DNA from: Myxococcales bacterium | GTDB lineage: Bacteria > Myxococcota_A > UBA9160 > SMWR01 | Direction: 5' to 3' | DNA length: 64,000 nt | Assembly (NCBI GenBank): GCA_029863845.1 | Contig: JAOTUO010000001.1 | Coordinates: forward strand, 3,664-67,663 | Shown: one piece after another, positions 2,091 to 55,200 of the stretch | Numbering within the stretch: the first letter of the stretch is position 1 | Layout: every line of letters starts with the position of its first letter | Translations under genes and position numbers: made by a program | The notes under the pieces: generated by a model | Databases searched by the model: none | What the model saw: only the letters and a program-made list of their open reading frames with translations | What the model was told of the DNA's origin: nothing

Positions 2091-2157
2091 GCGAGCGGAG
2101 TCGGACGAGCCCAGCCGGCGAAGTCTATGGAGCCCGCGAGCAGCGAGCCCTAGGGAG
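2051..2157. repeat. 63-bp tandem duplication, about 1.7 units (array E of the box-repeat family)
   Basis: GCCGGCGAAGTCTA(C/T)GGAGCC starts at 2051 and again at 2114. Unit 1 carries GCGCAGCGAGCCCTAGGCGAGCGGAGTCGGAC, which aligns with GCGCAGTGAGCCGCAGGCGAACGAAGTCAGAC in the 29.0-kb and 32.8-kb elements. Confidence 0.8.
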
Positions 2158-28129: not shown

Positions 28130-28942
28130 ATGTCCGAGCCCTCCCCTCTCCTCCTCGAGCGCGACGCCGGCGTCGCGATCCTGACCTTCAACGATCCCGA
28201 GCGTCGCAACGCCATGACCCAGGCCATGGGCGAGGCCGTCGCCGAGTGCGTGGCCGACCTCGCCGCCGACCGGGAGCTGCGCGCCGTCGTCCTCACCGGA
28301 GCCGGCCGCGCCTTCTCGGCCGGGGGCGACCTCGGGATGATCGGCTCGCGCGCCCGGGAGGGAACGCAGCGACCCGGCGTCGCGCGCCGCGGCATCCGCG
28401 ACACGATGCGGTCCTTCTACAAGCTCTTCCTGTCGGTACGGGACCTGCCCTGCCCCACCATCGCTGCCGTCAACGGCGCCGCCATCGGAGCCGGACTCTG
28501 CGTCGCGCTGGCCTGCGACGTCCGGGTCGCCTCCGCCGAGGCCAAGCTGGGCCTGAACTTCACGGTGCTCGGGCTGCATCCGGGGATGGGCGCCACCTGG
28601 ACGCTTCCCCGGCTCGTGGGGCCGGCACTCGCGGCCGAGATCCTCTTCTCGGGTCGGGTGTTCCGGGGCGAGGAGGCTGCCCGCATGGGTCTGGTGAACC
28701 GCGTCGTCGCGCCCGACGCCGTACTCCCGACCGCCCGCGAGCTCGCCGCCGAGTTCGCCGCCAGCGCGCCCCTGGCCGTCCGGGCCGTCAAGCGCGCCCT
28801 CGCCCGCTCCCCCTACGTGAGCCTCGAAGATCAACTCAGCTTCGAGGCCGAGGAGCAGGCGGCCTGCTTCGAGACACAGGACGTCCGCGAAGGACTCGCC
28901 GCCGCCAAGGAAAGACGCCCCCCCCGCTTCCAGGGCCGCTGA
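28130..28942 (+). CDS. Enoyl-CoA hydratase/isomerase (crotonase) family protein
   Basis: VAILTFNDPERRNAM, VVLTGAGRAFSAGGDL and PTIAAVNGAAIGAGLCVALACD. Confidence 0.9.
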   Translation: MSEPSPLLLERDAGVAILTFNDPERRNAMTQAMGEAVAECVADLAADRELRAVVLTGAGRAFSAGGDLGMIGSRAREGTQRPGVARRGIRDTMRSFYKLFLSVRDLPCPTIAAVNGAAIGAGLCVALACDVRVASAEAKLGLNFTVLGLHPGMGATWTLPRLVGPALAAEILFSGRVFRGEEAARMGLVNRVVAPDAVLPTARELAAEFAASAPLAVRAVKRALARSPYVSLEDQLSFEAEEQAACFETQDVREGLAAAKERRPPRFQGR

Positions 28943-28965
28943 CGCCGCCCGGCCGGGCCACGTGA

Positions 28966-29157
28966 CGCAGCGACGAGCCAGGGCGAGGGCCGAAGGGGAC
29001 CCCGCAGCGAAATCAAGCGCAGGCCATCAATGCCTTGGCAAGGCGGCGCAGCCGCCGCGCAGTGAGCCGCAGGCGAACGAAGTCAGACTCCTGAGGATGG
29101 CCGAGCCATTCGCGGAGGGGTCCCCTTCGGCCCTCGCCCCGCTGCCGCGTCGCTGCG
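28966..29157 (+). repeat. Hairpin-bracketed conserved-core intergenic element, copy A
   Basis: The ~120-nt core (29001-29120) is flanked by complementary arms. CGCAGCGACG..GGGCGAGGGCCGAAGGGGACCCC (28966-29002) pairs with GGGGTCCCCTTCGGCCCTCGCCC..CGTCGCTGCG (29117-29157). It fills most of the convergent spacer between the crotonase and yqeY stops. Confidence 0.85.
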
Positions 29158-29166
29158 CTGGGGCGC

Positions 29167-29616
29167 TCAGTCGCCGGCCAGGAGGCGGCGGGCGATCTGG
29201 CTCACGAGCTTGCCGTCGGCGGCCGGGCCGAGGCGCTCCAGGGCCGGCTTCATCACGCGCCCCATCTCCTTCGGACTCGTCGCGCCCACCTCGGCGATCG
29301 TCGCGCGCACGACCCGCTCGATCTCGGCCTCGTCGGGGGCCGCCGGCAGATAGGCCTCCAGAACGGCCCGTTCCGCCCCCTCCTTCTCCACCAGATCGTC
29401 CCGCCCGGCGTTTCGGAACTGCTCGATCGAGTCGATTCGCTGCTTCACGAGACCGCGAATCACGCGCAGGATGCCCTCGTCACCCAGCAACTCGCCGATC
29501 TCGATCTCCTTGTTGCGCACCGCGCCCCGGACGCCGCGGATCGTCTCCAGGCGCAGGGTGTCCCGACTCCGCAGGGCCTCCTTCATGTCGGCTTCCAGAC
29601 GGTCTCGAAGGTGCAT
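29167..29616 (-). CDS. GatB/YqeY domain-containing protein
   Basis: ORF 29167..29751 trimmed to ATG 29616. MHLRDRLEADMKEALRSRDTLRLETIRGVRGAVRNKEIE is a typical YqeY N-terminus. Confidence 0.85.
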   Translation of the reverse strand: MHLRDRLEADMKEALRSRDTLRLETIRGVRGAVRNKEIEIGELLGDEGILRVIRGLVKQRIDSIEQFRNAGRDDLVEKEGAERAVLEAYLPAAPDEAEIERVVRATIAEVGATSPKEMGRVMKPALERLGPAADGKLVSQIARRLLAGD

Positions 29617-29880
29617 GTTTCTCGTCTTCTTCACCGCCGACCGCGATTTCGTGTGATCCGTCTCACCGAATCGGACTCGGGCTGTGCTAACCCTCAAGTG
29701 TTGGGGAGTTTGTTCGAAAGAGAAGCATAGGTTTGTCCAACCACGGGGCAAAGGGGGAGAGACCTCGTGAGTCGCGCACTTCGTACGCCGAGTCTCTGGC
29801 TGGTTCTGACCTGGGCGGGGCTGATCCTGCTCATGGCCCGGACCTACGCCTAGGCCGCTCGAACACCCGATCCACCCCCG

Positions 29881-30327
29881 TCAGGCCGGCAAGGCCTCGA
29901 CCGGCCCCAGGATCTCCATCGCGTTGAAGAAATAGGCGATCTCCAGGCGTGCCGTCTCGGGCGCGTCGGAGCCGTGGACCGCGTTGCGCTCGATGTCCGT
30001 CCCGAAATCGCCGCGGATCGTCCCGGGCGCCGCCTGGGTGGAATCGGTGGGCCCCATCAGCTCCCGATTCCGGGCGATGGCATCGGGTCCCTCCAGGACG
30101 CTCGCGACGACGGGTCCCGACGTCATGAACTTCACCAGGTTGCCGTAGAAGGGCCGCTCCTTGTGGACGGCGTAGAACCCCCGCGCCTGCGCCTCCGTGA
30201 GCCTCAGCTTCTTGAGCGCGACGACCTGAAGTCCCGCCTGCTCGAAGCGGCGCAGGATCTCGCCCGTGGCGGCTTTCGCCACGGCATCCGGCTTCACGAT
30301 CGAAAGCGTCCTTTGCGTCTCGGCCAT
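29881..30327 (-). CDS. ndk: Nucleoside-diphosphate kinase
   Basis: ORF trimmed to ATG 30327. [20 protein letters not shown] and [10 protein letters not shown] contain the active-site His motif. Confidence 0.95.
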
Positions 30328-30409
30328 CAACCGATCTCCTCGCTGGGGGCGGCAGAGCATACCGGCACCGTGGAAGCGAATCGACTCGACCGTCGATCCC
30401 GCCGGACCG

Positions 30410-31744
30410 TCATTCGACGTAGCCGAGCGCGCGCAGTCGCTCCCGCTGCTCTTCGCTGGCGACCGGCGCCGCCTCGGGTTGCCGTCGGCTGCGCAGGTCG
30501 GCGAGGCGCCGCACGCGCTCGTCGAGCTCTAGACGCAATTCAGCGTCGCTCTCCGGCTTGGCTTCGAACAGGTTCGAAGCCTCGCGGGGATCGTCCCGCC
30601 AGTCGAAGAGCAGCGGGTCCCCGGCGGCGCCCCTGTGGATGACGTGCCGGCCCCCGTGGATGGCGCTGTAGAGGTCCACGAGCGGATCCTCGCTGAACAG
30701 AGTACGCGGCGGCCGGTCGGCTCCGCGCCCCTCTATGAAGGGGAGCAGGGACACGCCCTCGACCGCAGGCGCCGGGATTCCCAGCAGGTCGAGCAGGGTC
30801 GGCATCACGTCGGCGAGCGCCGCGGGCTGGGTCACCACGCGGCGTTCGAGCCCGGGCCCGGCCATGATCCACGGCACGCGCAGGCTCTCGATGAACTGCG
30901 TGTTGCGGTGACCGATCTGGCCGTGTTCGAGGAACTCCTCGCCGTGATCCGAGACGACGACCACGATCGTGTTCCGCAGGCGCCCTTCGCTTTCGAGGCG
31001 CTCGAAGAAGGCGCCGAGGAGGTCGTCGGCGTAGCGGATGCCCGCGTCATAGCGATCGGAGAGAAATCGGGCCTGGCCGGGCGTGAGCGCCATGCCGTTG
31101 TAGTGGGGGTTCCCGCAGCGATCGCGCGTTTCGATCCGGTCGGCGGCCGGGCTCCGGTCGAAGAGCCGCGCATAGCGCGGCGGCGGGTGGTACGGACAGT
31201 GTACGTCGTAGGTGTGGACGAACCAGAAGTAGCGCTCCTCCGGAGCGAGCTGGCGGGCGACGCGAACCACGAGGTCGAGGGCGGTGCGCAGATCGAGCGG
31301 CTTGAGACCGTAGCGGTCGAAGCCTCGATCGAATCCGTGGCTCCCGTCCAGGAATCCCCCGCCGGTGACACCGAAGGTCCGGTAGCCGTGCTGCTTCAAC
31401 ACTTCGGTCAGCGTCGGGATCCCCGTCTGCATCTTGTCTCGGGGACCGGTCACGCCGTGGAAGGAGGGCGGCAGTCCGGTGAAGAGGGTCACGTGGGCGG
31501 GCAGCGTCCAGTTGGAATCCGCGATCACCGTCTCGAACCGCACACCCCGCGCCGCCAGTGCGTCGAGGTGGGGGCTGGTGTTCCGCTCGTAGCCGTAGGC
31601 GCCGAGGCGGTCCGCCCGCAGCGTGTCGATGGAGACGAGGATCAGGTTCGGCTGCGCCGCCTCGCGATCGGCGCAGGCGCCGCTCACGCCGGCCACCAGG
31701 AGCGCAGGGACGATCCAGGCGCGGGGGCGTCTCGTTCGATTCAC
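30410..31744 (-). CDS. Sulfatase-like hydrolase/transferase (alkaline-phosphatase superfamily), secreted
   Basis: ORF 30410..32638 trimmed to GTG 31744 (GTGA overlap with the upstream qor stop). After a signal peptide come [20 protein letters not shown] and [11 protein letters not shown] saw no canonical C/S-x-P-x-R formylglycine motif. Confidence 0.8.
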
Positions 31745-32721
31745 GCGACGCGGAGCACGACCTTGCCGAAGTGCTCGCTCGCCTTCACCAGGCGGTGGGC
31801 TTCGGGGGCCTGTTCGAGGGGCAGCACGCGGTCCACGATCGGCCGGATCTCGCCCTGGTCGAGGGCCGCTCCGAAGCGCCCGCGGAACGCCGCCGCGATC
31901 GCCGCCTTCTCCGGCGCCGGACGCGCGCGCAGCGTCGAGCCGATCACCTCGAGCCGCCGCACGAGAAGCGGCCCGAGGCCGATCTCGGCGCGAGCGCCGC
32001 CCATCAAGCCGATCAGGACTAGCTTCCCGCCCACGGCGAGGGCGGCGAGGTTCTTCTCCAGGTAGGGCGCTCCGATCGAGTCGAGGACGACGTCCACGCC
32101 GCGCCCGCCGGTCGCGCGCCGGGCCGCCTCGACGAAGTCGCCCGTTCGGTAGTTCACGGCGAGGTCGGCACCGAGCTCGAGGCAGCGGCGGCACTTCTCC
32201 TCCGAGCCCGCGGTCACGACGACGGTCCCGCCCGCGGCCTTGACGAGCTGGATCGACGCGGTGCCGATCCCGCTGCCGCCTCCGTGCACGAGCACCGCAC
32301 CCCCTTCGGGCAGCGCCCCGAGCCGGAAGACGTTCAGAAAGACGGTGAGGAAGACCTCCGGCACGGCCGCGGCCTCTTCCAGGGAGAGCCGGCCGGGCAC
32401 GTGCAGCGCGGAGCCGGCGTGGACGACGACCTCCTCGGCGTAGCCCCCGCCCGCCAGCAGCGCCATCGCCCGGTCGCCCGCCCGCCAGCCCTCCACGTCG
32501 GTCGCTACCTCGACGACCTCTCCCGCGCACTCGAGGCCGAGGATCTCCGACGCACCCGGCGGCGGCGGATAGAGCCCCTGTCGCTGGAGCAGGTCCGCGC
32601 GGTTGACCGCGGTGGCAGCGACGCGGATCCGGATGCACCCCGGCTCGAGGACCGGCGCGGGCACCTCGCCCAGGTGCATGGCGGACTCGTCTCCCGGTGC
32701 GTCGATGACGATGGCCTTCAC
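31741..32721 (-). CDS. NADPH:quinone oxidoreductase (zeta-crystallin/MDR family)
   Basis: ORF 31741..33300 trimmed to GTG 32721 (VKAIVIDAPG...). AVNRADLLQRQGLYPPPPGAS, VLVHGGGSGIGTASIQL and HFGKVVL. Confidence 0.9.
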   Translation of the reverse strand: MKAIVIDAPGDESAMHLGEVPAPVLEPGCIRIRVAATAVNRADLLQRQGLYPPPPGASEILGLECAGEVVEVATDVEGWRAGDRAMALLAGGGYAEEVVVHAGSALHVPGRLSLEEAAAVPEVFLTVFLNVFRLGALPEGGAVLVHGGGSGIGTASIQLVKAAGGTVVVTAGSEEKCRRCLELGADLAVNYRTGDFVEAARRATGGRGVDVVLDSIGAPYLEKNLAALAVGGKLVLIGLMGGARAEIGLGPLLVRRLEVIGSTLRARPAPEKAAIAAAFRGRFGAALDQGEIRPIVDRVLPLEQAPEAHRLVKASEHFGKVVLRVA

Positions 32722-32773
32722 GCCGCGCAGCTTACAAGAGCCGTTGCCACCGCGCCGAACCCCGGTGCGCAGC

Positions 32774-32934
32774 GAGGTCCGGAGCCGCAGGGATCCCGCA
32801 GCGAAATCAAGCGCAGGCCAAACCAATCTTCGCAAGGCGGCGCAGCCGCCGCGCAGTGAGCCGCAGGCGAACGAAGTCAGACTGCTGAGGATGGCCGAGC
32901 CATTCGCGGAGGGATCCCTGCGGCTCCGGACCTC
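32774..32934 (+). repeat. Hairpin-bracketed conserved-core intergenic element, copy B
   Basis: Perfect 24-bp inverted arms: GAGGTCCGGAGCCGCAGGGATCCC (32774-32797) and GGGATCCCTGCGGCTCCGGACCTC (32911-32934). They enclose a core identical to copy A apart from an 11-nt patch and one substitution. Confidence 0.9.
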
Positions 32935-32986
32935 TGAACTACGTCGCATACAATGGCTTTGCGCCAGACTGCTAGCCTCCCGCGGC

Positions 32987-33985
32987 GTGACGCGAAACTG
33001 GCGCCTCCACCGGCTGCCGCGCCGGACGCTCGCGCTCGTTGCGTTGGCAGCGATTGCGTCGCCGCTCCGGGCCGCCGAGATCGACAGCGTGACGTCGCGA
33101 AACGCGCCGCTGCGCGACTCGTCGAAGCCCCTGGACGCGCGGATCCACGACGCCCTGCGCACCGCCGTCGAGCGCGCCAACGAGCGCGGCTCCGATTGCG
33201 ACCCGCAGGACCTCACCCGGCAGCTGCGACGGGCCCTGTCCGTCCCCTTCATCGGGCACGCGATCGCCGAGGACCTCAACGACGCCGACGATCTGGACAC
33301 GAGACGCGTGGCCTTCCGCGATTCGATCTACCGGGACCTGGGGGTCTTCGATGCCATCAGCGTCCATCTCAAGGATCTGAGCGCGGTGATCCGACTCGGT
33401 GACGACCTCGTCGGCGTCGACAAGATCGGGCACTTCTTCGTCCAGGGCTGGACGTACTTCGAGATCGCATACCTGAAGGGAGACGGGATCGAGGCGGCCA
33501 TGGACTGGGGGGAGCGGGCCGAGCGAACGTACTTCGGCCTCTACACCACGGGGATCTACTCCTACGCGGACCTGTCGGCGAACTTCGAGGGCATGCGCTT
33601 CTGGCTGCGGCTGCTGGGGCCGGAGCCGGACCCCCTCGATCGGGGTTGGCGCTTCAACCGGCCCGCCGTCACCTGCGGCAAGCGCTTCTGGACGCGCGAG
33701 TCCTACTGGCGAATCCGCCGGAAGCCGCGCCTGTCGCGGTACGTGAGCGGAGCCTGGGACGAGGGCGTGAACTGCTCCCGGTACCGCAATCCCGAGATCG
33801 AGGCGCTGGTCGCCGACCGGATCGCAGAGCGCGAGGCGGCGGACGCCGCCTCCTACGCCTGCCCGATTCGACCGGACGCGTGCGTGGAAGCGCGGGAGCG
33901 ATACGGGCCCTACGCGGATCGGCTGCTGCATCCGCGCTGCGCCGCCGCAGAGCGCCCGCCGCGCCCGTGGTGGAAGTTCTGGTAG
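32987..33985 (+). CDS. Hypothetical secreted protein
   Basis: ORF 32603..33985 trimmed to GTG 32987 so that it starts outside repeat copy B. It has a signal-like RRTLALVALAAIASPLRAAEI. Later regions (DKIGHFFVQGWTYFE, YSYADLSANFEGMRFW) match no family I recognise. The start is uncertain. Confidence 0.55.
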   Translation: MTRNWRLHRLPRRTLALVALAAIASPLRAAEIDSVTSRNAPLRDSSKPLDARIHDALRTAVERANERGSDCDPQDLTRQLRRALSVPFIGHAIAEDLNDADDLDTRRVAFRDSIYRDLGVFDAISVHLKDLSAVIRLGDDLVGVDKIGHFFVQGWTYFEIAYLKGDGIEAAMDWGERAERTYFGLYTTGIYSYADLSANFEGMRFWLRLLGPEPDPLDRGWRFNRPAVTCGKRFWTRESYWRIRRKPRLSRYVSGAWDEGVNCSRYRNPEIEALVADRIAEREAADAASYACPIRPDACVEARERYGPYADRLLHPRCAAAERPPRPWWKFW

Positions 33986-35364: not shown

Positions 35365-36459
35365 TCAGGGACGCACGGCGATGACGATGTCGAAGTATCC
35401 GGCCGGATCGGCGTGCAGCGACGAGAGGGTGGCGTCGTCGGATCGGACCTTGATCGTGTGGGACGCCACGACGCCGCCCTCGACGTTGATGCGGAAGTAC
35501 CGCGAGAGATTCCACTCGAAGCCGACCCCGGCCAGCACCTGCCGGTCGCGCAGATTCAGCGGGCCGGCGACGCCGGCCCGGTCTACGAGCCGAAAACTCT
35601 CGGTGGTGACGTAGCCCGCGGCAAACAGCTCCAGGCGATTCGTCAGCCGGTACTCGATCTGGCCACCGATGCCGCGATTGCGCACCGTGAGTCGCTTCGT
35701 AGGATCCCAGCGGATCGTGCCGACGGGTGTCACCTTGACGCCGCTCCCGATGAGTCGGCTTTCGAGGCGCGCACCGAGGGCCATGCGCAGACGTGCGTTC
35801 TGATAGCCGAGGCTGAGGATCCCGCCTCCGGTCGATCCCTGCTCGAAGTTGTCGTCCTCCCAGCGCGAGCGCCCGTAGGCCGCGCCGATCAGCGACCAGG
35901 ACTCGCCGTCGACGAACAGGTACCCGCCGTCGTTGATCCGATACGCGCCCTGAAGGGACAGGAGCGCCTCATAGAGCCCGTCGATGGGATCGCCCGAGGT
36001 CGGGCCCAGGCCGAAGAGATCGCTGGTTCCGCTGAAGTCGTAGTGGCTGCCCCCGGCCTTCCCCGTGATCTGGAGGACCCCGCGATCCGAGACCGGCAGG
36101 GTCACGCGCAAGCGGGCGCCGGGGCTGTAGAGGGCGACGTCCGCAGAGCCGAAGTCGCTGCGGGGGACGAAGTGCGATCGCAGGCTCAGCCGGACCGCAT
36201 CCCGATAGCGGACCTGGGGAAAGATCGGAGTCCCGACGTTCTCGGGATCGTCTTCCTGCGAGTGGATGACCGTCGCCTTCCGCTCGACTGCGATCGAGGC
36301 TTCGGTCTCGGGCGAGGCTTCGGCTGAGGCTTCGGTGTCGGGCGAAGCTTCGGCCGAGGCTTCGCGAGCGGGGCCGTCGCCGCCCTCCACCGCATCCTGT
36401 GCCGAAGCGGTCGCCGCGGCGAGCAGCACGAGCACAGCGGCGGCTCCCGCCCGCCGCAA
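35365..36459 (-). CDS. Putative outer-membrane beta-barrel protein
   Basis: This is the C-terminal part of ORF 35365..38088. TTG 36459 gives MRRAGAAAVLVLLAAATASAQD, a signal peptide. Alternating-hydrophobic strands follow throughout (GVLQITGKAGGSHYDF, WSLIGAAYGRS, GILSLGYQNARLRMALGARLE, LELFAAGYVTTESFRL). Start codon choice is uncertain. Confidence 0.55.
   Translation of the reverse strand: MRRAGAAAVLVLLAAATASAQDAVEGGDGPAREASAEASPDTEASAEASPETEASIAVERKATVIHSQEDDPENVGTPIFPQVRYRDAVRLSLRSHFVPRSDFGSADVALYSPGARLRVTLPVSDRGVLQITGKAGGSHYDFSGTSDLFGLGPTSGDPIDGLYEALLSLQGAYRINDGGYLFVDGESWSLIGAAYGRSRWEDDNFEQGSTGGGILSLGYQNARLRMALGARLESRLIGSGVKVTPVGTIRWDPTKRLTVRNRGIGGQIEYRLTNRLELFAAGYVTTESFRLVDRAGVAGPLNLRDRQVLAGVGFEWNLSRYFRINVEGGVVASHTIKVRSDDATLSSLHADPAGYFDIVIAVRP
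36296..36366. repeat. 30-bp in-frame tandem repeat inside the OMP gene (encodes EASAEASP(D/E)T repeats)
   Basis: GAGGCTTCGG recurs at 36296 and 36326, with a partial copy at 36356. It sits just after the signal peptide in the minus-strand protein. Confidence 0.8.
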
Positions 36460-39790: not shown

Positions 39791-40232
39791 CGTGCCGGAG
39801 GTGGATGGAGGATCGCCGGCGAACAAACACCGTTCGCGGGAGGAAAGTCCGGGCTCCAATGGGCAGGGAGGTCGCTAACGGCGACCCGGGGTAACCCGAG
39901 GGAAAGCGCCGCAGAAACGACACCGCCGATGGCCTGCGATCCCCCGGCTGCGAGAGGCAGCCGGGGAGGAGGCACAGGCAAGGGTGAAAACGTGGGGTAA
40001 GAGCCCACGCGCGACAGCCGGGTGACCGGCGGCGGGGCAAGCCCCTCCCGGAGCAAGCTCGAATAGAGGCGCTGTCGAGGGCGGTCCGCCCGAGCAGCCG
40101 CAGCCGCGGCTCCAGCACCCGGGTCAGAGCGCTCGAGCGGCCCAGCAATGGGCCGCCTAGATGAATGATCCTCGCCGGCGCGGGGGCAACCGCGCGCCGG
40201 AACAGGACCCGGCTTACAGTCCACTTCGGGAG
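39791..40232 (+). ncRNA. rnpB: RNase P RNA, bacterial type A
   Basis: Universal blocks are on the plus strand: GGAGGAAAGTCCGGGCTCC (P4 5' strand), CCGCCGATGGCC, CAAGGGTGAAA, GGTAAGAGCCCAC, CCCGGAGCAAG, CTAGATGAATGA and AACAGGACCCGGCTTAC (P4 3' strand). P2 pairs GAGGAT with ATCCTC. P1 pairs CCGGAGGTGGA (39795-) with TCCACTTCGGG (-40230). Ends are good to about +/-10 nt. Confidence 0.92.
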
Positions 40233-42548: not shown

Positions 42549-44333
42549 GTGCTGCGCCGGATGGACTGGCAGGGCTGGTTCACGCTCGCGGTCGTGCTCC
42601 TGACGCTCGCGGTGATGGTGCGGGGGCTCGCGGCCCCCGACGTCACCATGATGGCGGGCCTGTTCACGCTCGCGGCCTTCGGCGTCCTCTCACCCGCCGA
42701 GACATTCATGGGCTTCGCCAACCCGGCGCTGGCGACGATCGGCGCGCTCTTCATCGTGTCGGCGGCGCTGCGGGAGACGGGGGCGCTCGAGGCGACCGTC
42801 GGCCGCATCTTCGGCCCGGCCCGCGATGAGCGCATGGGGCTGGCGCGGATCTGCCCGCCCGTGGCCACGCTGTCGGCGTTCCTCAACAACGCGCCCATCG
42901 TCGCCATGATGACGCCGGTGATCATCGACTGGGCCCGGCGGCGGGGTCTCACGCCGAGCCGCTTCCTGATTCCCCTCAGCTACGCGTCGATCCTCGGGAG
43001 CATCACCACCGTGATCGGGACCAGCACCGTGCTCACGGTGGCCGGCCTCGTCCTCGACGCGAAGATGCCGCCCATTGGCTTCTTCGAGCTGGCGCCGGTG
43101 GGCGTGCCGATCGCCATCGCGGGCCTGCTCTACCTCCAGTTCGTGTCGCCGCGCCTGCTCCCGGTGCGCAAGCAGCCGACCGAGGAGCTCGGCGAGCACC
43201 GGCGCGAGTACACGACGTCGATGATCGTGGAGCACGACGGTCCGCTCGCGGGCCAGACGGTCGAACAGGCGGGGCTGCGTCACCTGGAGGGCCTGTTCCT
43301 GGTGGAGATCGACCGCGGCGGTCGCATCATCACGCCCGTCGGGCCCGACGCCGTGATCCGGGCGGACGACCGGCTGGTGTTCGCGGGCGTGGTCTCGACG
43401 ATCGTCGAGCTGCAACGCATTCGCGGCCTGGTGCCGGAGACCGACGGCGACGAGCCCGCGCCGGGCCGGAGCAGCCAGCGCCTGATCGAGGCGGTGGTCT
43501 CGCCCTCCTCCCCGCTCGTGGGCCGGACGATCCGCGCCTCCAACTTCCGGACCGTGTACGACGCGGCGGTGATCGGCGTGCACCGCAACGGCGAGCGGGT
43601 GCCCGGAAAGATCGGCGCCATCGGGCTGCGCGCCGGCGACACGCTCCTGCTCCAGGGCGCCGCCGGCTTCCTACGCGCGCACCGCAACAGCCCCGACTTC
43701 TACCTGGTGAGCGAGATCGCCGAGACCGAGACGCCGCGCTACGACCGGGCCTGGCTCGCCATCGGAATCCTCGTCGCCATGGTCGTGGTGGCGAGCACCG
43801 GAATCTACCCCATCGCCGTCGCCGCCTTTCTCGCGGCCGGGCTCCTGATCGTGACCCGCTGCATCCGGGCCCAGGGCGCGCGCCAGAGCGTCGACTGGTC
43901 GATCCTGATCGTGATCGGAGCCGGCTTCGGCATGGCCGCGGCAATGCAAAAGACGGGCGCCGCCGGCGCCGTGGCGGGCGTCCTCTCGTCGATCACCGCG
44001 GGCGCGGACAATCCGATGCCCGCCTTCGTCGTGGTATACGTCGCGACGCTGCTGCTGGCGGAGACGCTCCACCACGCCGCCGCCGTGGCCATCATGTTCC
44101 CGATCGCGGTGGCCGCGGCCGCGAACGTGGGAGCTGACCCCCGGCCCTTCGTGATGGCCGTGGCGGTGGCGGGCTGCTGCGCCTTCGCGTCGCCGGTGAC
44201 CTACCAGACCCACCTGATCGTGTACGGACCCGGCGGCTACCGGTTCGGCGACTTCGTGAAGGTGGGCCTGCCGCTCGACCTGCTCTGCGGCGTCATCGGG
44301 ATCGCGCTGATCCCGGTCTTCTGGCCCTTCTGA
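42549..44333 (+). CDS. SLC13/DASS-family permease with two central TrkA-C (RCK_C) domains
   Basis: 594 aa. N- and C-terminal multi-TM halves (LSAFLNNAPIVAMMTPV, AFASPVTYQTHLIV) flank two RCK_C-like segments (GQTVEQAGLRHLEGLFLVEIDRGG...; GRTIRASNFRTVYDAAVIGVHRNG...). Confidence 0.9.
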   Translation: MLRRMDWQGWFTLAVVLLTLAVMVRGLAAPDVTMMAGLFTLAAFGVLSPAETFMGFANPALATIGALFIVSAALRETGALEATVGRIFGPARDERMGLARICPPVATLSAFLNNAPIVAMMTPVIIDWARRRGLTPSRFLIPLSYASILGSITTVIGTSTVLTVAGLVLDAKMPPIGFFELAPVGVPIAIAGLLYLQFVSPRLLPVRKQPTEELGEHRREYTTSMIVEHDGPLAGQTVEQAGLRHLEGLFLVEIDRGGRIITPVGPDAVIRADDRLVFAGVVSTIVELQRIRGLVPETDGDEPAPGRSSQRLIEAVVSPSSPLVGRTIRASNFRTVYDAAVIGVHRNGERVPGKIGAIGLRAGDTLLLQGAAGFLRAHRNSPDFYLVSEIAETETPRYDRAWLAIGILVAMVVVASTGIYPIAVAAFLAAGLLIVTRCIRAQGARQSVDWSILIVIGAGFGMAAAMQKTGAAGAVAGVLSSITAGADNPMPAFVVVYVATLLLAETLHHAAAVAIMFPIAVAAAANVGADPRPFVMAVAVAGCCAFASPVTYQTHLIVYGPGGYRFGDFVKVGLPLDLLCGVIGIALIPVFWPF

Positions 44334-47300
44334 AGGCCCTGGCGCAGTCCGCGCGTCAGATCCTCCAGGACCAGGTAGAGCGCCGGCACCACGAACAGCG
44401 TGAGCAGGCTCGCCACCGCGAGCCCGAACACGATGGCGGCCGCGAAGGGCCCGAACACCCGCGAGTATCCGGTGACACCGAGCGCCATCGGCAGCAGCCC
44501 CACCATCGTGGTGAGCGTGGTGAGGAGGATCGGCCGGAAGCGGCGCTGGCTGGCCGTCCGGACGGCTTCACCCGGCGACACGCCGCGCAGCCGCTGGCGA
44601 TTCACGAAGTCGATCAGCACCAGCGAGTCGTTCACGACGATGCCGGCCAGCCCCACCATCGCGTACAGCACGTACATCGAAAGCGCGTAGCCACCGACGA
44701 GCGAATTCATGGTCCACATCCCGACGCTGACGCCGATGAACGAGAAACCGATCACGCTCATCACGATGAACGGTTGAGTATAGGATCGGAACTGGGCGGC
44801 GAGGATTCCGAAGATGGCCACGACCGCGAGCAGAAAGGCCCGGCGCATGTCGGCGAAGGCGTCGTCGGTCGCCTGGAACTCGCCCCCGAAGACGAGATTC
44901 ACGCCGGAATAGCGCTTCGCGACGTCGCCGAACCGGGAACGCATCTCTTCGTTGACCGAGATCGAGGTCGCCTGCTCGTTGTCCACGTCGGCGTACACGA
45001 CCACGGCGCGCTGGGCCCCGAAGTGGTACAGCCGCTCGTAGCCGCGGTTCAGATCGACGTCGGCGACGTCGCCGAGCTCGACCCGGTAGCCCGCCGGCGT
45101 CCGGATCCGGACCTGCATCAGGTCGGCGATGCTGCGGCGCTGCTCCTCCCGCACCAGGACGCGGATATCCACGTCCTCGTCGGAATCGGGATCCTTGAAG
45201 GTCGACGGGACCACGCCGTCGTTGGCCGCCATCAACGCGAAGCCCACGTCCGCGAAGGTCAGCCCGTGGATGGAGGCGCGGTGCTCGTCCAGGGCGACCC
45301 GCAGCTCGCGCGGGCCGAAGGGCACGTTGTCCTCGATGTTGTAGACGCCGGGAACGGCGGAGAGTTCGGATTTCACCTCCTCGGCGATCTGCTTGGCCTG
45401 CGCGTAGTCGTCGGACTGGATGCGGATCGCGACCGGTTTTCCGATGGGCGGGCCGTTGCGGGGCGGTTGCACGCGAAAGCTCGCGATGCCCGCGGGATTC
45501 GCGGCGCGATAGGCGTCCAGCCGATCCCGCACGAGATCGAGCACCCGGTCCGGGTTCGCGATGTTGGCGTAGCTGTTCGGGAACGAGATCCAGAGCATCG
45601 CGTAGTTGACGCCGATGATCGGAATCTGATCGGCGTTCATTCCGATTCCGATGTTCGTGGCGATGTCGGTGAGCTCTTGACGAATCGGCTCGAGGGCGCG
45701 CTCGACGCCCTGCACGACCTCATCCGTCTGGTGGATCCCGTAATCCGTCGGCGTCTGGATCGTCACCATCAGCTGGTTGAAGTCGCTGGGGAAGAGATCG
45801 ACCGGTATGTGCCGGGAGAGGCCGAGCGCGAAGAAGAGCGCCGCGAAGCACGCGGACAGGAAGACGTAGCGGTGATCCAGGAGCGGCTGCTGGACCCTCA
45901 GGAAGACGCCGCGGAGGCGCTCGATTCCCGCCTCCGTGCGGGTCCGGAGCGTGTAGGCGATGCGGACGGCGGCCGGGCGATGGGTCGACGCCGCCAGAGA
46001 CTCGGCCGCCCTTCCGCGACTCCCGAAGTCGACGTAGTGGGCCGGCAGGATCAACAGCGCCTCGATCAGCGAGCCCAGCAGGCACACGATCACGGTCTTC
46101 GGAAGGATCGACATGAACTCGCCGCTGGTGCCGGAGACCGTGAGCATCGGAATGAACGCGGCGATCGTGGTCGCCACGGCGGCCGTCACCGGCCACATCA
46201 CCTCCTCGGTGCCCTGGACGACGGCCTCCCGCACCGGCACGCCGTTCTCCACGTAGCTGTACACGTTCTCGAGGATGATGATGGCGCCGTCCACCAGCAT
46301 GCCCGAAACCATGACGAAGCCGATCAACGACAGGGAGTTGATCGTGATGTCGAAGACGGGAAAGAGGATCATTGCCGTGAGGAACGAGAAGGGAACCCCC
46401 ACGATCGCGAGCATCGCGTTGCGAAAGCCGACCGTGAGCCAGAGGATCAGGATCACGAACGCGATGCCCACGAGCAGGTTCGACTTCATGATGTCCATCC
46501 GGACGCTCACGTAGTCGGCGCTGTTGTAGGTGATGGACGTCTCGACGCCGTCCGGGATCGCAGCGGCGTGCTCGTCCAGCAGGGATCGGACCTCGTCGAT
46601 CAGGTCGATCAGGTCGACGTCGGCTTCCTTGGAGATTCCCAGGCTGACCGCCGGGACGCCGTTTTGGCGACCGATGATGCGCCGCTTCGCGAACCCCGCG
46701 GCGACCTCGGCGACGTCGCCGAGCAGGATGTGGCTCCCGTCCGGGTTCTTCTTGACGACGGTCCGGGCCAGCCGCTCCGGAGACACGAACTGACCCAGGC
46801 CGCGAACGATGATCTCGCGGTTCGCCGGGTCGGTGAACGAGCCTCCGGCGAAGTTCTGGTTGTTGTTTCCGATGATCGCCGTGATCTCGGCGAGCGTCAG
46901 GTCGTACTGGACGGCTCGGTTCTGGTCGACGAGGACGCGGATCTCGCGGTCCCGGGCGCCCCTCAGCTCCGCCTTGCGCAGGCCCGGAATCCGCTCCAGG
47001 CGGTCGCGCAGGTCGCGCGCGACCTCGCGCAGCGTGAACTCCCCGACGCCTCCCACGTCCTTCACGGCGACGATGCCGATGTTGTAGACCTCGGAGACCG
47101 AGAGCTCGCGCACGACCGGCGACTCCGCGTCTTCGGGCAGGTCGTCGGCCCGGTCCAACGCGGCGCGCAGGTCGTTCATGGCGGCCTCGTACTCGAGGTC
47201 CGTCAGCGTCTCGTCCCACTCGATGTTGATCTCCGACAGGCCGTGGCTCGAGAAGCTGTACAGCTCCTTGATTCCGGAGATGCCGTCGATCTCGTCCTCG

Positions 47301-47500
47301 AGCTTCTTGGTGAGCAGTCGCTCCACCTCCTCGGGCGAAGCGCCGGTCCAGACCGTGACGACGTAGGCGGTGTTGAAGGAGATGTCGGGGAACAGATCGA
47401 CCGGAATCCGCCGCATGATCTGCAGGCCCGCGATCATCAGCAGCGCGAAGATCAGATTGACCAGGACGATCTGTCGGACCGAGAAGGCCGGCAGACTCAC
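44237..47500 (-). CDS. RND efflux transporter, inner-membrane permease (AcrB/HAE1-like)
   Basis: ORF 44237..47662 trimmed to GTG 47500 (GTGA overlap with the MFP stop). VSLPAFSVRQIVLVNLIFALLMIAGLQIMRRIPVDLFPDI is a typical RND N-terminus. 12-TM/two-porter-domain layout. The 3' end overlaps the convergent SLC13 gene by 97 nt. Confidence 0.9.
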   Translation of the reverse strand: MSLPAFSVRQIVLVNLIFALLMIAGLQIMRRIPVDLFPDISFNTAYVVTVWTGASPEEVERLLTKKLEDEIDGISGIKELYSFSSHGLSEINIEWDETLTDLEYEAAMNDLRAALDRADDLPEDAESPVVRELSVSEVYNIGIVAVKDVGGVGEFTLREVARDLRDRLERIPGLRKAELRGARDREIRVLVDQNRAVQYDLTLAEITAIIGNNNQNFAGGSFTDPANREIIVRGLGQFVSPERLARTVVKKNPDGSHILLGDVAEVAAGFAKRRIIGRQNGVPAVSLGISKEADVDLIDLIDEVRSLLDEHAAAIPDGVETSITYNSADYVSVRMDIMKSNLLVGIAFVILILWLTVGFRNAMLAIVGVPFSFLTAMILFPVFDITINSLSLIGFVMVSGMLVDGAIIILENVYSYVENGVPVREAVVQGTEEVMWPVTAAVATTIAAFIPMLTVSGTSGEFMSILPKTVIVCLLGSLIEALLILPAHYVDFGSRGRAAESLAASTHRPAAVRIAYTLRTRTEAGIERLRGVFLRVQQPLLDHRYVFLSACFAALFFALGLSRHIPVDLFPSDFNQLMVTIQTPTDYGIHQTDEVVQGVERALEPIRQELTDIATNIGIGMNADQIPIIGVNYAMLWISFPNSYANIANPDRVLDLVRDRLDAYRAANPAGIASFRVQPPRNGPPIGKPVAIRIQSDDYAQAKQIAEEVKSELSAVPGVYNIEDNVPFGPRELRVALDEHRASIHGLTFADVGFALMAANDGVVPSTFKDPDSDEDVDIRVLVREEQRRSIADLMQVRIRTPAGYRVELGDVADVDLNRGYERLYHFGAQRAVVVYADVDNEQATSISVNEEMRSRFGDVAKRYSGVNLVFGGEFQATDDAFADMRRAFLLAVVAIFGILAAQFRSYTQPFIVMSVIGFSFIGVSVGMWTMNSLVGGYALSMYVLYAMVGLAGIVVNDSLVLIDFVNRQRLRGVSPGEAVRTASQRRFRPILLTTLTTMVGLLPMALGVTGYSRVFGPFAAAIVFGLAVASLLTLFVVPALYLVLEDLTRGLRQGLQKGQKTGISAIPMTPQSRSSGRPTFTKSPNR

Positions 47501-48651
47501 GACGCTTCCACACCGCCGCGACGGACGCGCTCGCCGTCCCGCAGCTGACGCATCCCGGTGATCGCGATCTCCTCGCCCTCGGCGAGGCCCGAGAGCACCT
47601 CGAACTCCCCGGGCCGGAACGGCAGCGGCCGCACCGCCACGCGCCGGCGACGCGCCACCCAATGGCCGTCGCTGCCGTCCCGCTCGACCACCCAGACGAA
47701 GCGCAGGCCGAACTCGTCCAGCGTCGCGTCGCGCGGGATCACGGTCCGCAGCTCGGCCTCGCCGAGGTCGAGGATCACGGTCGCGACCATGCCGGGCAGC
47801 AGGCGAGCGTCCGGGTTGGGGAGCTCGATCTCGACCGGGAACTTCTTGCTCACGACGTCGGCGGCCGCGCCGACGCGGAGGATCTCGCCGTCGAAAGGCT
47901 CCCCCGCGTAGGCCTCGACGCGCACCGTGGCGGGATGGCCGGCGCGCACCGCCACGATCTCGCGATCCGAGAGTCCGATCTGCACGCGCGCCGTCGAGAG
48001 GTCGAGCAGCTCCCCGAGCCGCTGGCCTGCGCCCACGTACTCGCCGACCTCCACGGAGAAGGACCGCAGCACGCCGCTGAAGCGTGCGACGATCGTCTTC
48101 TTGGACAGGTCGTCCCGGGCCCGCTTCAGCTCGGCGCGGCTCTCGCGCAGCGCGGCGGCGGCAACCTTCTCCGCGTTCACCGCGTCGTCGAATTCGGAGG
48201 TGCTGGCCGCGCCGCGATCCGCCAGCGACCGGCGCCGCTCCAGGTTCGAGCGCGCGAGGGCGACCTCGCTGGTGTTGCGCGCAATCGCGGCTTCCGCGCG
48301 CTCGACGGCCACCTCGGCGAGCAGCGGGTCGATCTCGACGAGCAGCCCGCCGGCGTCGACGCGGTCGAGTTCTTCGGCGCCCACCGCGATCACGGGGCCG
48401 CGCGTCTCGGCGAAGATCTGCACGCTGCGCCGCGCCTCCAGCACACCGGAGACCTCCACTTGCGAGCGGATCGCGAGCCTGCTCACCCGCTGCGTGGCGA
48501 CGGAGCGCAACGCAGCGCCGTCGCCGGCTGCCGTCACCCGCTCGGGCTCGGGCGCCAGCCCGAACAGCAGCGCGCCTCCCGCGACGAGCGCGATCGCAGC
48601 CGCGATCAACGACGCGCGCAGCGGCGATCGCCGGGGCGCCGCGTCAGCCAT
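47497..48651 (-). CDS. Efflux RND periplasmic adaptor (MFP/HlyD family)
   Basis: TM/signal anchor, a coiled-coil hairpin (EVAVERAEAAIARNTSEVALARSNLERRRSL...), and barrel domains (IVARFSGVLRSFSVEVGEYV, LLPGMVATVIL). Confidence 0.9.
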   Translation of the reverse strand: MADAAPRRSPLRASLIAAAIALVAGGALLFGLAPEPERVTAAGDGAALRSVATQRVSRLAIRSQVEVSGVLEARRSVQIFAETRGPVIAVGAEELDRVDAGGLLVEIDPLLAEVAVERAEAAIARNTSEVALARSNLERRRSLADRGAASTSEFDDAVNAEKVAAAALRESRAELKRARDDLSKKTIVARFSGVLRSFSVEVGEYVGAGQRLGELLDLSTARVQIGLSDREIVAVRAGHPATVRVEAYAGEPFDGEILRVGAAADVVSKKFPVEIELPNPDARLLPGMVATVILDLGEAELRTVIPRDATLDEFGLRFVWVVERDGSDGHWVARRRRVAVRPLPFRPGEFEVLSGLAEGEEIAITGMRQLRDGERVRRGGVEAS

Positions 48652-51419: not shown

Positions 51420-52202
51420 TCACCTCGCGGCTAGCCACACGAGGAAGAGCGCGCCCGCGGCCCACGTGTAGTAGGCGAAGCGGTAGAAGTGCCGGCTTCT
51501 CAGCAGGCGCACGAACAGCCAGATGGCCGCCACGCCCGAGACCAGTGCCACGGCGCCGCCGATCGCGATCGCCGTGGCGTGATCCGGGGACGCCGCGGAA
51601 AGGTCCGGCAGCTTCACGAGCGCCGCTCCGGCGATCGCGATCACGCTCATCAGGAACGAGAACTCGGCGGCCGCCGCCGGTGCCACGCCGAGGGCGAGGG
51701 CGACGGCCACGGTCGAGCCGCTGCGCGAGATCCCGGGCAGGATCGCGAAGGCCTGTGCACAGCCGATCAGCAGCGCCGCCGTCCAGCTCGGCTCGGGGAG
51801 CTGCGCCGCTTCGAGGGTCCAGCGGGTCGTCCAGAGAACGACCCCGGTCAGGATCAGGCAGACGCCGACTCCGGGAGGAAACTCGAACTGCGCCTCGAGC
51901 CAGTCGCCCGCCAGCAGATACGCAACGACGGCGGGGACGGTTGCCAGCGCCAGCTTACCCACGTAGCGCAGCGATTCCGCCCGCAGCCGCAGTGAGCCCC
52001 AGACCAGCGCGGCGACGCGGCGGCGGTAGACGGCGAGCACGGAGACCAGCGTGGCGAGGTGGACCGCCACCTCGAAGCGCAGCCCCTCTTGACGAACCCC
52101 GAGAAGCTCCTGGGACAGGACGAGGTGCCCGGAGCTCGACACCGGAAGGAACTCGGTCAGCCCCTGGATCAGACCGAGGAGGAAAGCGTCGACTTCGTTC
52201 AA
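51420..52202 (-). CDS. uppP: Undecaprenyl-diphosphate phosphatase UppP (BacA)
   Basis: LLGLIQGLTEFLPVSSSGHLVL and PGISRSGSTV motifs. TTG start at 52202 overlaps the upstream RND stop as TTGA. Confidence 0.9.
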   Translation of the reverse strand: MNEVDAFLLGLIQGLTEFLPVSSSGHLVLSQELLGVRQEGLRFEVAVHLATLVSVLAVYRRRVAALVWGSLRLRAESLRYVGKLALATVPAVVAYLLAGDWLEAQFEFPPGVGVCLILTGVVLWTTRWTLEAAQLPEPSWTAALLIGCAQAFAILPGISRSGSTVAVALALGVAPAAAAEFSFLMSVIAIAGAALVKLPDLSAASPDHATAIAIGGAVALVSGVAAIWLFVRLLRSRHFYRFAYYTWAAGALFLVWLAAR

Positions 52203-55200
52203 GAGCCCCCCGCCGCTGCGGGGGAGGGAGCCTCGGTCGGCGCCACACGGAACCGGCGCAGGATCCCGGCGCGCAGCCGGTCGATGACGACGTAGGTGGC
52301 GGGGACGATGAAGAAGCTGAGCAGGGTCGAGAAGAACATCCCTCCCACGACCGCGATGCCCATGGGCGCGCGGGCGTCGCCGCCGGCACCGCGCCCGAGC
52401 GCGATGGGCAGGATGCCGGCCATCGTGGCCAGAGCGGTCATCAGGATCGGACGGAAGCGCGTCCGCGCCGCCTGCTCCACCGCCTCCGCCACGCCCAGAC
52501 CGCGCGCGCGAAGCTGATTGGCGAACTCGACGATCAGGATCGAGTTCTTCGTCACCAGTCCCACGAGCATCACGAGGCCGATCTTGCTGAAGAGGTTGAG
52601 CGTGCCGGGCAGCCCCACGAGACCCCAGTCGTTCAGGCGTGCGACCGCGAGCAGCGCGATCAGCGCCCCTGTGAAAGAGAACGCCACCGCGACCAGGATC
52701 GTGATCGGGTGCATGAAGCTCTCGAACTGGGCGGCGAGCACGAGGAAGACGACGAGGATGGCCAGGCCGTAGGCGAAGACCAGAGCACTGCCCGATTCCA
52801 GGAACTTCTCCGCCTCGCCGGTGAAGCGAATCGCGTAGCCCTGCTCGGGAAGCACCTCCGCGGCGATGGCGCGCGCCACCTCGATGGCCTCGCCCTGGGG
52901 CAGGCGATCCTCCAGATCCGCCGAGATTGCGACCGAGCGCCTCCGGTTGAAGTGCGGGATCTCCCGCGGCGCGATCGTCTCCCGCATGCGGACGACCGCC
53001 GAGAGCCCGATCAGCGCCTCGTTGTTGCCGCGCACGTAGAGCTCGAGCAGATCGCGCGGGTCGTTGCGCTCCTCGCGCCCGAGCTGGACCATGACGTCGT
53101 AGGTCTCGCCCCCGAGCTTGAAGGTCGAGAGGTCGAGGCCGCCCAGCAGGATCTGGAGTGCGCTGGCGATCTCACGCACCGAGATGCCCAGGTCACTGGC
53201 CCGGTTGCGGTCGATCTCGACCTCCATCTGCGGCTTGTTCAGGTACAGATCCGAGTTGACGTGCCGGATGCCGTCCACCTCCCCGAGCCGGCGCTCGATC
53301 TCGTCCGCGTAGCTCGCCAGCGCCTGTAGATCGCTGCCCTCGATGACGAAGGAGACCGGCGAGGCGAGAAAGCCGGAGAAGGCGGAGGGGGTGCTCGCGT
53401 GCGCCTTGATGCCCGCGATCCGTTCGAGGCGCGGGGAAACGGCGTCCGCGATCTCGTCCCCGCTTCGATCGCGCTCGTCGGGGTCGTCGAGCCCTCCGAT
53501 CACGAGCCCCTGGTTGACGAGGCCGGGCGTTCCCAGGCCCAGCGCGATCACCGAGAACGTGCGGCGAACCTCCGGTTCGGCCATCACCACCTGCTCGGCC
53601 TGGAACTGGTAGCGATCCATGTACTCGATCGTGCTGCCCTCGGGCGCCTGGGTCCAGACGAAGAAGACGCTGCGGTCGGACTTCGGGATCAGCTCCTCGT
53701 CGATGAACGGCAGCAGGGCCACGCCCAGCACCAGCCAGGCGGCGCCCAGGCCGACGAACAGGCCCGGACGCCGCAGCACCCGGGCCAGCGACGCGGCGTA
53801 GGCAGCGGCCAGCCACTCGAAGAAGCGCCCGAAGGCGGCCTTGAGGCCGGTGTCGGTGCGTCCCGTACGCAGGATCAGGGCGCAGAGCGCCGGCGACAGC
53901 GTGATCGCGACGAAGCCCGAGATGAGCAGCGCCGCCGCCACCGTCACGGCGAACTCGCGGAAGAGCCGCCCCGTGGTGTCCGTGAGGAAGGTGAGGGGCA
54001 GGAACACCGCGACCGCCGACAGCGTCGCGGCGACCACCGCGAACGAGATCTCCTGCATGCCGCGCCGCGCCGCCTCCAGGCGCGGCGTTCCGGACTCCAC
54101 CCAGCGCGAGATGTTCTCGAGCACGACGATCGCGTCGTCGACCACGAGCCCGATGGCGAGGGTCACGCCCATGAGGGTGAGGGTGTTGATCGTGAATCCG
54201 AGGAAGTACAGGGCCGCGAAGGCCCCGAGGATCGAGACGGGGATCGTCACCGCCGGGATCAGGGTCGCGCGGAACGAGCGCAGGAAGACGTAGATGACGA
54301 GGATCACCAGCACCGCGGCTTCGAAGATCGTGCGGGTCACGTCGGCGATCGACTGCCGGATGTAACGCGACGAGTCCCACGCCACCACGAGCTGGACGCC
54401 CGGCGGCAGCTCGGGTCGGAGTGCATCCACCTCGGCCTGGACGCCGTCCGCGACGTCGATGGTGTTGGCCGTCGACTGCTTCACCACGCCCAGACCGACG
54501 CCCGGCTCGCCGTTGAAGCGCAGGAGCTTGCGTGCGCTCTCGGGCCCCACCTCGACGCGTGCGACGTCGCGGATCCGCACCGGCTTCCCGTCCACGTTCT
54601 GGATGATGAGGTCCCCGAACTCCTCGGGCGCCTGCAGCTCGCCGAGGCTGCGGACGGTGAACTCCGTGCTGGACGACTCGAGGCGCCCGGAGGGAATGTC
54701 GACGTTCTCGCGCCCGAGCGCGTCGGCCACGTCCGCGATCGTGAGCGACTGCGCCGCGAGGCGACGGTTGTCGATCCAGACCCGCATGGAGTATCGGCGC
54801 TCGCCCGCGATGATGACGCTGGCGACGCCGGGGAGCTTGGTGAGCCGGTCGACGATCTGCGTCTCGGCGATCGACGTGAGCTGGATCTGGTCGAATCCCT
54901 CGCCGTAGAGCGCCATCCAGATCACGGCGCTCGCGTCGGAGTCCTGCTTGGCCACGACGGGAGCCTCGACCTCTTCGGGCAGGTGGTTGCGGGCCCGCGA
55001 GACGCGGTCGCGAACGTCGTTGGCGGCGGCCTCGAGATCGCGGCCCAGCTCGAACTCGACGGAGATCATCGAGACCTGCTCGCGGCTGATCGAGGTCAAC
55101 TGCTTGACCCCCTCGATCCCGTTCACCTGGTCCTCGAGGGGGTCGGTGACGGAGGTCTCGACGACTTCGGGCGCCGCACCGGGAAACACGGTCGTGATCG

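Follow-up and report, generated by a model that had tools for sequence, protein, structure and literature searches.

What has been learned of small hairpin-forming interspersed repeats in bacterial genomes comes almost entirely from Proteobacteria and Firmicutes. Some of them, the REP/BIME (bacterial interspersed mosaic element) and ERIC repeats of enterobacteria, are known to make the mRNA upstream of them more stable or to act as binding sites for host proteins. For REPINs, compensatory changes have been reported in hairpins that transpose (PMC3116915). Here, we analysed a 64-kb stretch of DNA, hereafter called the window (71% G+C; one metagenome-assembled contig, JAOTUO010000001.1, of a Myxococcales bacterium), which carries three copies of an intergenic hairpin element. 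The element belongs to a dispersed, sharply bounded and non-coding repeat family, in which two blocks are near-invariant and the interior between them is dispensable. We take it, with a probability of roughly 0.6, to represent a new family of small non-autonomous hairpin interspersed repeats of uncultured Myxococcales/Myxococcota-like bacteria, comparable with miniature inverted-repeat transposable elements (MITEs), REPINs and BOX elements; if so, it extends this kind of repeat to uncultured Myxococcota.

A preliminary description of the window had reported three loci with a common core, two of which (copies A and B) were said to differ in the core only by an 11-nt patch and one C/G substitution. 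All three are real copies (Table 1), and the difference between A and B is exactly as described. With the 121-nt core of A as query, blastn and nhmmer recovered just two other full copies from the window, B (94% identity) and C (85%). A central segment of 42 nt and a 3′ segment of 25 nt are present there in exactly three copies each (≤3 mismatches), compared with an expectation of 0 in dinucleotide shuffles. The proposal that each copy folds into one long hairpin was borne out by folding A, B and C, and the hairpins are far more stable than shuffled sequences (copy A, Table 1; copy B as DNA, -61.6 kcal/mol, z = -8.8; copy C as RNA, -100.7 kcal/mol, z = -5.8).

The family was searched with an exact 20-nt piece of the 3′ end of the element, which matched at least 119 contigs of JGI metagenomes; the family-wide counts given here rest on the matches listed, all of which were retrieved through the 3′ block. 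Among the 127 listed matches to this block, 101 have the 5′ block upstream, 12 run off the edge of a contig and 14 are chance occurrences within genes, and the suspected dispersal of the element is thereby supported by 101 more copies with both end blocks. The copies come from at least three sample series, one of which holds a clearly diverged subfamily. Among the listed matches, 39 of 113 elements lie ≤250 nt from a contig end, a position that is typical of a repeat that breaks assemblies, and two short Logan contigs terminate exactly at the element of copy A; the enoyl-CoA hydratase gene beside this copy is found in identical form on one ENA metagenome contig and four other contigs. The FtsZ encoded in the window matches, without any difference, a protein that NCBI lists as ‘MAG: Myxococcales bacterium’, which places the host among the uncultured Myxococcales (phylum Myxococcota). 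In 185,579 species-representative genomes, a first search pattern gave 0 matches and a second gave 13, with a single real element among them, in ‘uncultured delta proteobacterium MFD09779.bin.1.97’. No match to the element was found by blastn in phage and plasmid records, and no viral contig carried the 5′ block or the interior module. An origin from phages, plasmids or viruses was rejected; the three viral matches to the 3′ block represent the sequence type of locus L014, which is without the remaining element (loci are denoted by L numbers). Our literature search found no paper that contains the sequences of the element.

Lining up ~100 copies gave the plan of the element, which is ~124-165 bp long (~160 bp for the copies in the window) and consists of a 21-nt 5′ arm, a 25-nt 5′ block, an interior, a 21-nt 3′ block and a complementary 21-nt 3′ arm. 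The 5′ block (CCCGCAGCGAAATCAAGCGCAGGCC, 25 nt) and the 3′ block (GGCCGAGCCATTCGCGGAGGG, 21 nt) are near-invariant, and the arms follow the consensus GCGGCCGGGRCCGAGGnnnAT, within which GGCCGG..CCGAG is kept at 85-95%; pairing between the arms ends sharply past position 21. Long inverted arms had been noted in the preliminary description, and this part stands, but it had missed that the arms are an integral part of the element, are of constant length (21 bp) and covary. Its view of a ~120-nt core conserved as a whole is not supported, since family-wide only the 25- and 21-nt blocks and the pairing of the arms are kept and the interior is replaceable.

Three types of interior occur between the blocks. 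Type 1 (core 114-121 nt), which is found in all three copies of the window, consists of a short variable patch and, after it, a single unit of the GCAAGGCGGCGnAGCCGCCGCGCAGTGAGCCGnAGGCGAACGAAG module; type 2 (core 118 nt in 39/49 copies) has a few semi-conserved islands amid highly variable stretches, with a median difference of 26/72 positions; and type 3 (core 82 nt) is a shorter variable interior. Some of the cores of 165-263 nt (such as L006, L021 and L027) have extra tandem module units between the blocks, and some contigs, such as L045, L046, L053 and L097, carry mixed interior types. The interiors of types 2 and 3 fold no better than shuffled sequences (z ~0), and RNAalifold predicted no helix inside them. 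A minimal form is present in L027 (6011-6099, core from 0-based position 6032), with the arms, both blocks and GAAG as the whole interior in a 47-nt core.

In the folded single strand the two blocks form an irregular helix, the outer part of which contains CCC/GGG and then 5′-GCA/GGA-3′, read as G·A, C:G and A·G. Its inner part contains GCGAA(A)T/ATTCGC with one bulged A, an asymmetric loop with a 2-bp GC/GC, and GGCC/GGCC. The small hairpin ATGGC-CGA-GCCAT that had been described earlier does lie inside the invariant 3′ block, but in the family-wide fold the partner of this block is the 5′ block.

The arms have stayed paired through many double changes. Watson-Crick pairs make up 92% of the arm cells over 90 copies; nearly every arm position shows several pair types, and positions 3-8 and 11-13 show three or four each. 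Covariation was tested on 35 type-2 copies with a structure that we specified, 500 column shuffles and five measures. In these copies 96.1% of the cells are paired, and 21/40 pairs and 135 cells have changed on both sides; 0/500 shuffles reach any of the five measures. When the 3′ partner was slid by 1-3 columns, pairing was 30-47% and the cells changed on both sides numbered 18-34. Mutual information over all column pairs showed the arm diagonal and nothing convincing elsewhere. Compensated changes of the core helix were seen at pairs 25-143 and 47-125, and as CCC/GGG to CGC/GCG in L097 and L027. The pairs inside the blocks never vary and are therefore evidence neither for nor against pairing. 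Mismatches in the arms comprise 42 G-T on the plus strand of the element and 26 A-C, equivalent to G-T on the opposite strand; at p ~0.07 by our binomial estimate, neither strand can therefore be named.

Comparison of orthologous loci indicated that related genomes have gained, lost and remodelled copies of the element. The spacer between the stop codons of the enoyl-CoA hydratase and YqeY genes is 224 nt in the window and only 26 nt in L141, where the gene order is equal and FtsZ is 84% identical, and the short spacer contains no element and no arm-like palindrome. Retention is seen for copy C, which is orthologous to the copy of L075 (flanks 87-91%, 5′ block 25/25 identical), with two arm pairs altered on both sides and still paired. 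The interior was swapped between L070 and L095 (flanks 92-98%), which have the same locus-specific arms, one with a type-2 and the other with a type-1 interior, and it was lost at L027/L097, where the arms are common, the interior of L027 is cut to GAAG and L097 is of type 1. At L074/L116 (flanks 84-88%) one element has been replaced by another, and the same site holds differing arms and types. Finally, L092 and L096 (flanks 83-86%) are identical in the arms (42/42) and the 5′ block (25/25), and their interiors agree at 54/73 positions.

The latter two loci are part of the diverged subfamily (L092, L096, L089, L110, L112, L036; Ga0075428 and Ga0315273 series), all members of which have the arms GCGCCGGAGGAAGGGATGGGA, with interiors that differ at roughly one quarter or more of the positions. 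Simple decay of recent copies fails to explain such identical arms and blocks with divergent interiors. Clusters of adjacent, nested or partial elements, some with 5′ blocks that have no downstream 3′ block, were observed at L037, L066, L109, L057 and L009, and suggest local rearrangement or insertion of elements side by side. Hypermutation between near-identical strains, considered for L037/L066, was rejected, because the locus holds clustered partial elements and its orthology is unsafe.

To place the copies relative to genes, we used a crude gene call based on G+C at third codon positions, by which both neighbours could be placed for 46 copies. Of these, 28 lie between convergent, 17 between co-directional and 1 between divergent genes; by chance, about 1/4 would be expected between convergent genes in bacterial genomes. 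Copies prefer gene 3′ ends, and many begin 4-30 nt past a stop codon. Of the copies with co-directional neighbours (17), 7 run with the genes and 10 against them. Within the window, the flanking genes confirm the claim that all three copies are intergenic. Copies A and C lie between convergent genes and are flanked by two stop codons, those of an enoyl-CoA hydratase gene (+) and a YqeY gene (-) for A and those of a fatty-acid desaturase gene (+) and a HupE/UreJ gene (-) for C. Copy B lies between divergent genes, flanked by the 5′ ends of a zinc-dependent alcohol dehydrogenase (ADH) gene (-) and an unannotated gene (+).

Among the options raised in the preliminary description, that of a BIME- or MITE-like element fits best with the position at gene 3′ ends, the empty site, the turnover and the contigs that break at the element. 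In the mechanism we propose, a trans-acting enzyme encoded elsewhere would recognise the folded strand via the block helix; a stem of any sequence would suffice for recognition if paired, and the unit would be copied or moved without target-site duplication. A copy would propagate only if its blocks are intact and its arms paired, and as a result the blocks would remain invariant, the arms would covary and the interiors would drift. Selection on the ability to spread has been argued for REPINs (PMC3116915), and we invoke it here for blocks, arms and interiors alike. Copies would survive at gene 3′ ends, where they may be harmless, and the highly stable hairpin is probably also a barrier at transcript 3′ ends in either orientation. 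The lack of target-site duplication fits single-strand (IS200/IS605-like, RAYT-like) or site-specific mechanisms and not DDE transposition.

Several results weigh against a mobile element. Transposase, recombinase and reverse transcriptase domains are absent from the ~33 open reading frames (ORFs) scanned in the window and from the gene table of its 18-39 kb part, as the preliminary description had stated for transposases, and no such enzyme was found in the flanks of ~120 loci or between the inverted L047 copies, which enclose GNAT and ADH genes. In ~110 copies no ORF lies between the ends of the element, the largest distance between the blocks being 263 nt, and no autonomous insertion sequence (IS) with the same ends was seen among them. 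Insertion ends show no target-site duplication or conserved target motif: direct repeats of 4-6 nt are not in excess at assumed arm lengths of 19-23, and 3-mers are in weak excess (9 versus 2.5 expected). The lone empty site (L141) comes from a fairly distant relative, and its junctions are not alignable base by base. Moreover, some copies stay at one locus across ~10% flank divergence, and the 5′ blocks of six orthologous pairs show 96% identity, compared with roughly 83-99% for the flanks (BLAST). These observations hint at a locus-level constraint, i.e. at host function and not at selection on transposability alone.

A role at transcript ends is the main rival of the mobile-element reading and is compatible with it. 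As a cis-acting RNA module of the 3′ untranslated region, the hairpin would end transcripts from both neighbouring genes or stop their read-through, or bar the way to 3′ exonucleases, its G·A-rich helix would bind a host protein, and genomic spread would be secondary. The slow change of blocks and arms at orthologous loci, together with the tight fit to stop codons, makes such a host role possible, and the blocks and arms are indeed kept more than the interior at L092/L096, with arm pairs that change yet stay paired between orthologues. The 28/46 copies between convergent genes point in the same direction, as do the many copies that nearly fill the spacer just past the stop codons and the extremely stable folds. 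However, the stem is not followed by the T-tract of an intrinsic terminator, the 3′ flanks being C-rich and not T-rich; copy B lies between two gene starts; and the blocks are asymmetric, yet the orientation to co-directional genes is unbiased (7 versus 10). A 160-nt modular unit with a free interior also far exceeds the needs of a terminator, and the multiplication of the family is left unexplained. We regard the module as an unlikely explanation by itself.

We hold with similar reserve a narrower form of the mobile-element reading, in which the family would be a distinct mobile or recombining class that is recognised as a folded single strand, with a dedicated enzyme that reads the invariant, asymmetric, G·A-rich block helix and needs only a paired 21-bp stem, and with an exchangeable apical cassette that is swapped, deleted or tandemly amplified between the blocks. 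If this tentative proposal is true, the mechanism would be unlike that of the RAYT/REPIN system, of DDE-type MITEs and of integron attC sites.

It is considerably less probable that only the core is mobile and inserts into the apex of existing palindromes such as terminator hairpins, the arms then being target DNA. There are parallels, as IS elements target REP sequences and group IIC introns target terminators. The arms vary between copies and are nearly perfectly paired, L070 and L095 have the same locus-specific arms around a type-2 and a type-1 core, and the copies lie at positions expected of terminators. Against this reading stand the strong arm consensus and the fixed length of 21 bp; the empty site of L141 is also without such a palindrome, and at the L074/L116 site the arms differ too. 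No arm-only hairpin was found in the window or in 848 kb of sequence, a sample biased to element-bearing loci; with no such hairpin in this sample, arms as an independent REP-like family were rejected.

Marginally less credible still is a site for a site-specific recombinase or a nucleoid protein (attC-, dif- or BIME-like), acting as double-stranded or folded DNA with the interior as an exchangeable cassette. Exchange of the interior between the blocks with the arms kept (L070/L095), its precise loss in L027 and the resemblance of a hairpin with unpaired bases and a variable apex to folded attC would all be accommodated, but the termini are GCGGCCGG/CCGGCCGC and not RYYYAAC/GTTRRRY, the copies are scattered among housekeeping genes and not in cassette arrays, and no integrase or recombinase was seen in the ORFs of the window that were scanned.

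Independently transcribed small RNA genes, another earlier suggestion, with the blocks as scaffold and the variable interior as guide or effector, are the least probable: a conserved scaffold with a covarying closing stem and the constant type-2 core length (118 nt, 39/49) despite saturating substitution would suit them, but a scan of 28500-33500 found no sigma-70-like promoter or T-tract terminator at A and B, orientation is unbiased (7 versus 10), the interior has no fold signal and is deleted or swapped at a locus, and there is no Rfam relative.

Further candidates were tried and rejected. The interior as a guide for nearby DNA was discarded, since 10-mer matches to the own locus (0.455 per kb) are no more frequent than those to other loci (0.463 per kb). 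A coding element was discarded as well, since the 31-codon reverse-strand ORF of type-2 copies is absent from type 1; this ORF is also disrupted by stops, by frameshifts in 119-nt copies and by a lost stop codon. Proteins that recur near elements are short-chain dehydrogenases/reductases, sigma-54 regulators, acyl-CoA dehydrogenases, sulfatases and Era, all ordinary housekeeping families, and a linked protein family was rejected on this ground. Rfam covariance-model scans at gathering and permissive thresholds, covering the window and loci with other interior types, gave no match to the element, in agreement with the earlier statement that no known Rfam family was recognised; local scans yielded noise at the element, namely Pyrobac-1 (16 bits) and models of miRNA precursors that scored far below threshold.

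The preliminary description had counted five loci in 64 kb by including two tandem derivatives near tatA. These arrays have only ~29-45 nt of the interior module in common with the element (blastn, nhmmer) and no end blocks or arms; because they share the interior module only, the window has three members of the family and not five, and the arrays are a related but separate repeat. The first array begins within the 3′ end of a CysZ/EI24-family ORF (536-1579), the stop codon of which is the TGA of the first array unit. The stop codon of tatA (ATG 1867, stop 2088-2090) is likewise supplied by the module repeat (GAGCCCTAG).

For metagenome work, the element matters in that it breaks assemblies and misleads gene callers, as one public call starts inside copy B. 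This 364-amino-acid ORF (32891-33985; L001 14762-15856) has its start ATG inside the 3′ block (GAGGATGGCC); the GTG at 32987, followed by a signal-peptide-like stretch, looks like a more plausible start, and the protein is without a Pfam match. Beyond this, the anatomy has three clean layers, namely invariant blocks, covarying arms and a free interior. The family can also help to decide whether such repeats persist through selection on transposability or through a host function, and the blocks could serve as bait for a protein that binds them.

Table 1. Coordinates of the three element copies, the module arrays and other features of the 64-kb window
Feature	Position	Strand	Remarks
Copy A, whole hairpin	28966-29157	+	as RNA, minimum free energy -128.1 kcal/mol, z = -8.7 against shuffles
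Copy A, canonical element	28980-29140	+
Copy A, extra outer stem	28966-28978 with 29147-29157	+	copy-specific
Copy A, 5′ arm	28980-29000	+	AGGGCGAGGGCCGAAGGGGAC; 20/21 paired with 29120-29140
Copy A, 5′ block	29001-29025	+	CCCGCAGCGAAATCAAGCGCAGGCC; near-invariant, ~100 copies
Copy A, type-1 interior	29026-29098	+	variable patch, then one GCAAGGCGGCGnAGCCGCCGCGCAGTGAGCCGnAGGCGAACGAAG module unit
Copy A, 3′ block	29099-29119	+	GGCCGAGCCATTCGCGGAGGG
Copy A, 3′ arm	29120-29140	+
Copy B, whole element	32774-32934	+
Copy B, 5′ arm	32774-32794	+	GAGGTCCGGAGCCGCAGGGAT; 21/21 paired with 32914-32934
Copy B, core	32795-32913	+	5′ block 32795-32819, type-1 interior 32820-32892, 3′ block 32893-32913
Copy B, 3′ arm	32914-32934	+
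Copy C, whole element	59698-59854	-
Copy C, 5′ arm	59834-59854	-	GCGGCCGGGGCCGAAGCGCGT
Copy C, core	59719-59833	-	5′ block 59809-59833, type-1 interior 59740-59808, 3′ block 59719-59739
Copy C, 3′ arm	59698-59718	-	ACGCGCCTCGGTCCCGGCCGC; one G-T and one A-C against the 5′ arm
Tandem module array near tatA	1547-1755	+	57-nt period, 3.7 units, 96% matching; type-1 interior module; no end blocks or arms; not a family member
Two diverged direct module copies	about 2040-2150	+	overlap the 3′ end of tatA; not family members
RNase P RNA, bacterial class A	39797-40232	+	220 bits, full-length; only Rfam match in the window
Short tandem repeat	36295-36364		period 30, 2.3 copies, 90% matching
Short tandem repeat	57379-57440		period 27, 2.3 copies, 88% matching
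Two large AcrB/RND-type transporter genes	44240-48643, 52202-56488	-	TetR regulator and sigma-70 family gene between them

Compared with described systems, the element shares with REPINs that it is a short multicopy extragenic hairpin with compensatory stem changes (PMC3116915) and no target-site duplication, that it persists vertically at loci and that the mobilising gene (RAYT/TnpA-REP in REPINs) would lie outside the element. Unlike in REPINs, the arms do not form REP palindromes, the logos of arms and flanks show neither GTAG nor CGTC as a conserved tag, the most conserved parts are two asymmetric internal blocks and not the ends, and the interior of 36-73 nt or more lacks structure and can be exchanged; neither the 64-kb window nor the locus flanks yielded a RAYT gene. 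Classical MITEs (Correia/NEMIS, RUP, Nezha) are similar in size, terminal inverted repeats, high copy number and intergenic, non-coding nature. The element differs from them in having no target-site duplication, no parent IS with the same ends was seen among ~110 copies, and its arms vary by copy and covary instead of presenting one transposase-binding sequence.

Integron attC sites also act as a folded single-strand hairpin in which structure counts over stem sequence, with unpaired bases near the base and a variable terminal structure. In contrast to them, the element has no R′′/R′ core sites (its ends are GCGGCCGG ... CCGGCCGC), its invariant blocks are much longer, and its copies stand singly among dcw-cluster and other housekeeping genes, with no cassette arrays and no intI nearby. 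Like the REP/BIME and ERIC repeats of enterobacteria, it is palindromic and lies at the 3′ ends of genes and between convergent ones, but it is of unrelated sequence, larger as a unit and modular in its interior.

BOX elements of Streptococcus pneumoniae (boxA-boxB(n)-boxC) are built of conserved end modules that pair into a stem and of a central module in variable tandem number, as in type 1 with one unit and the longer copies with more, and they too are intergenic and without their own transposase. This is an analogy of architecture only, and homology is not claimed; a relationship in sequence would not be expected between an AT-rich Firmicute and a genome of 71% G+C, and the element has two further interior types and copy-specific, covarying 21-bp arms. 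The element thus lacks features that define classical MITEs, REPINs and attC sites; it works most like a REPIN or MITE, and in its modular build it is nearest to BOX.

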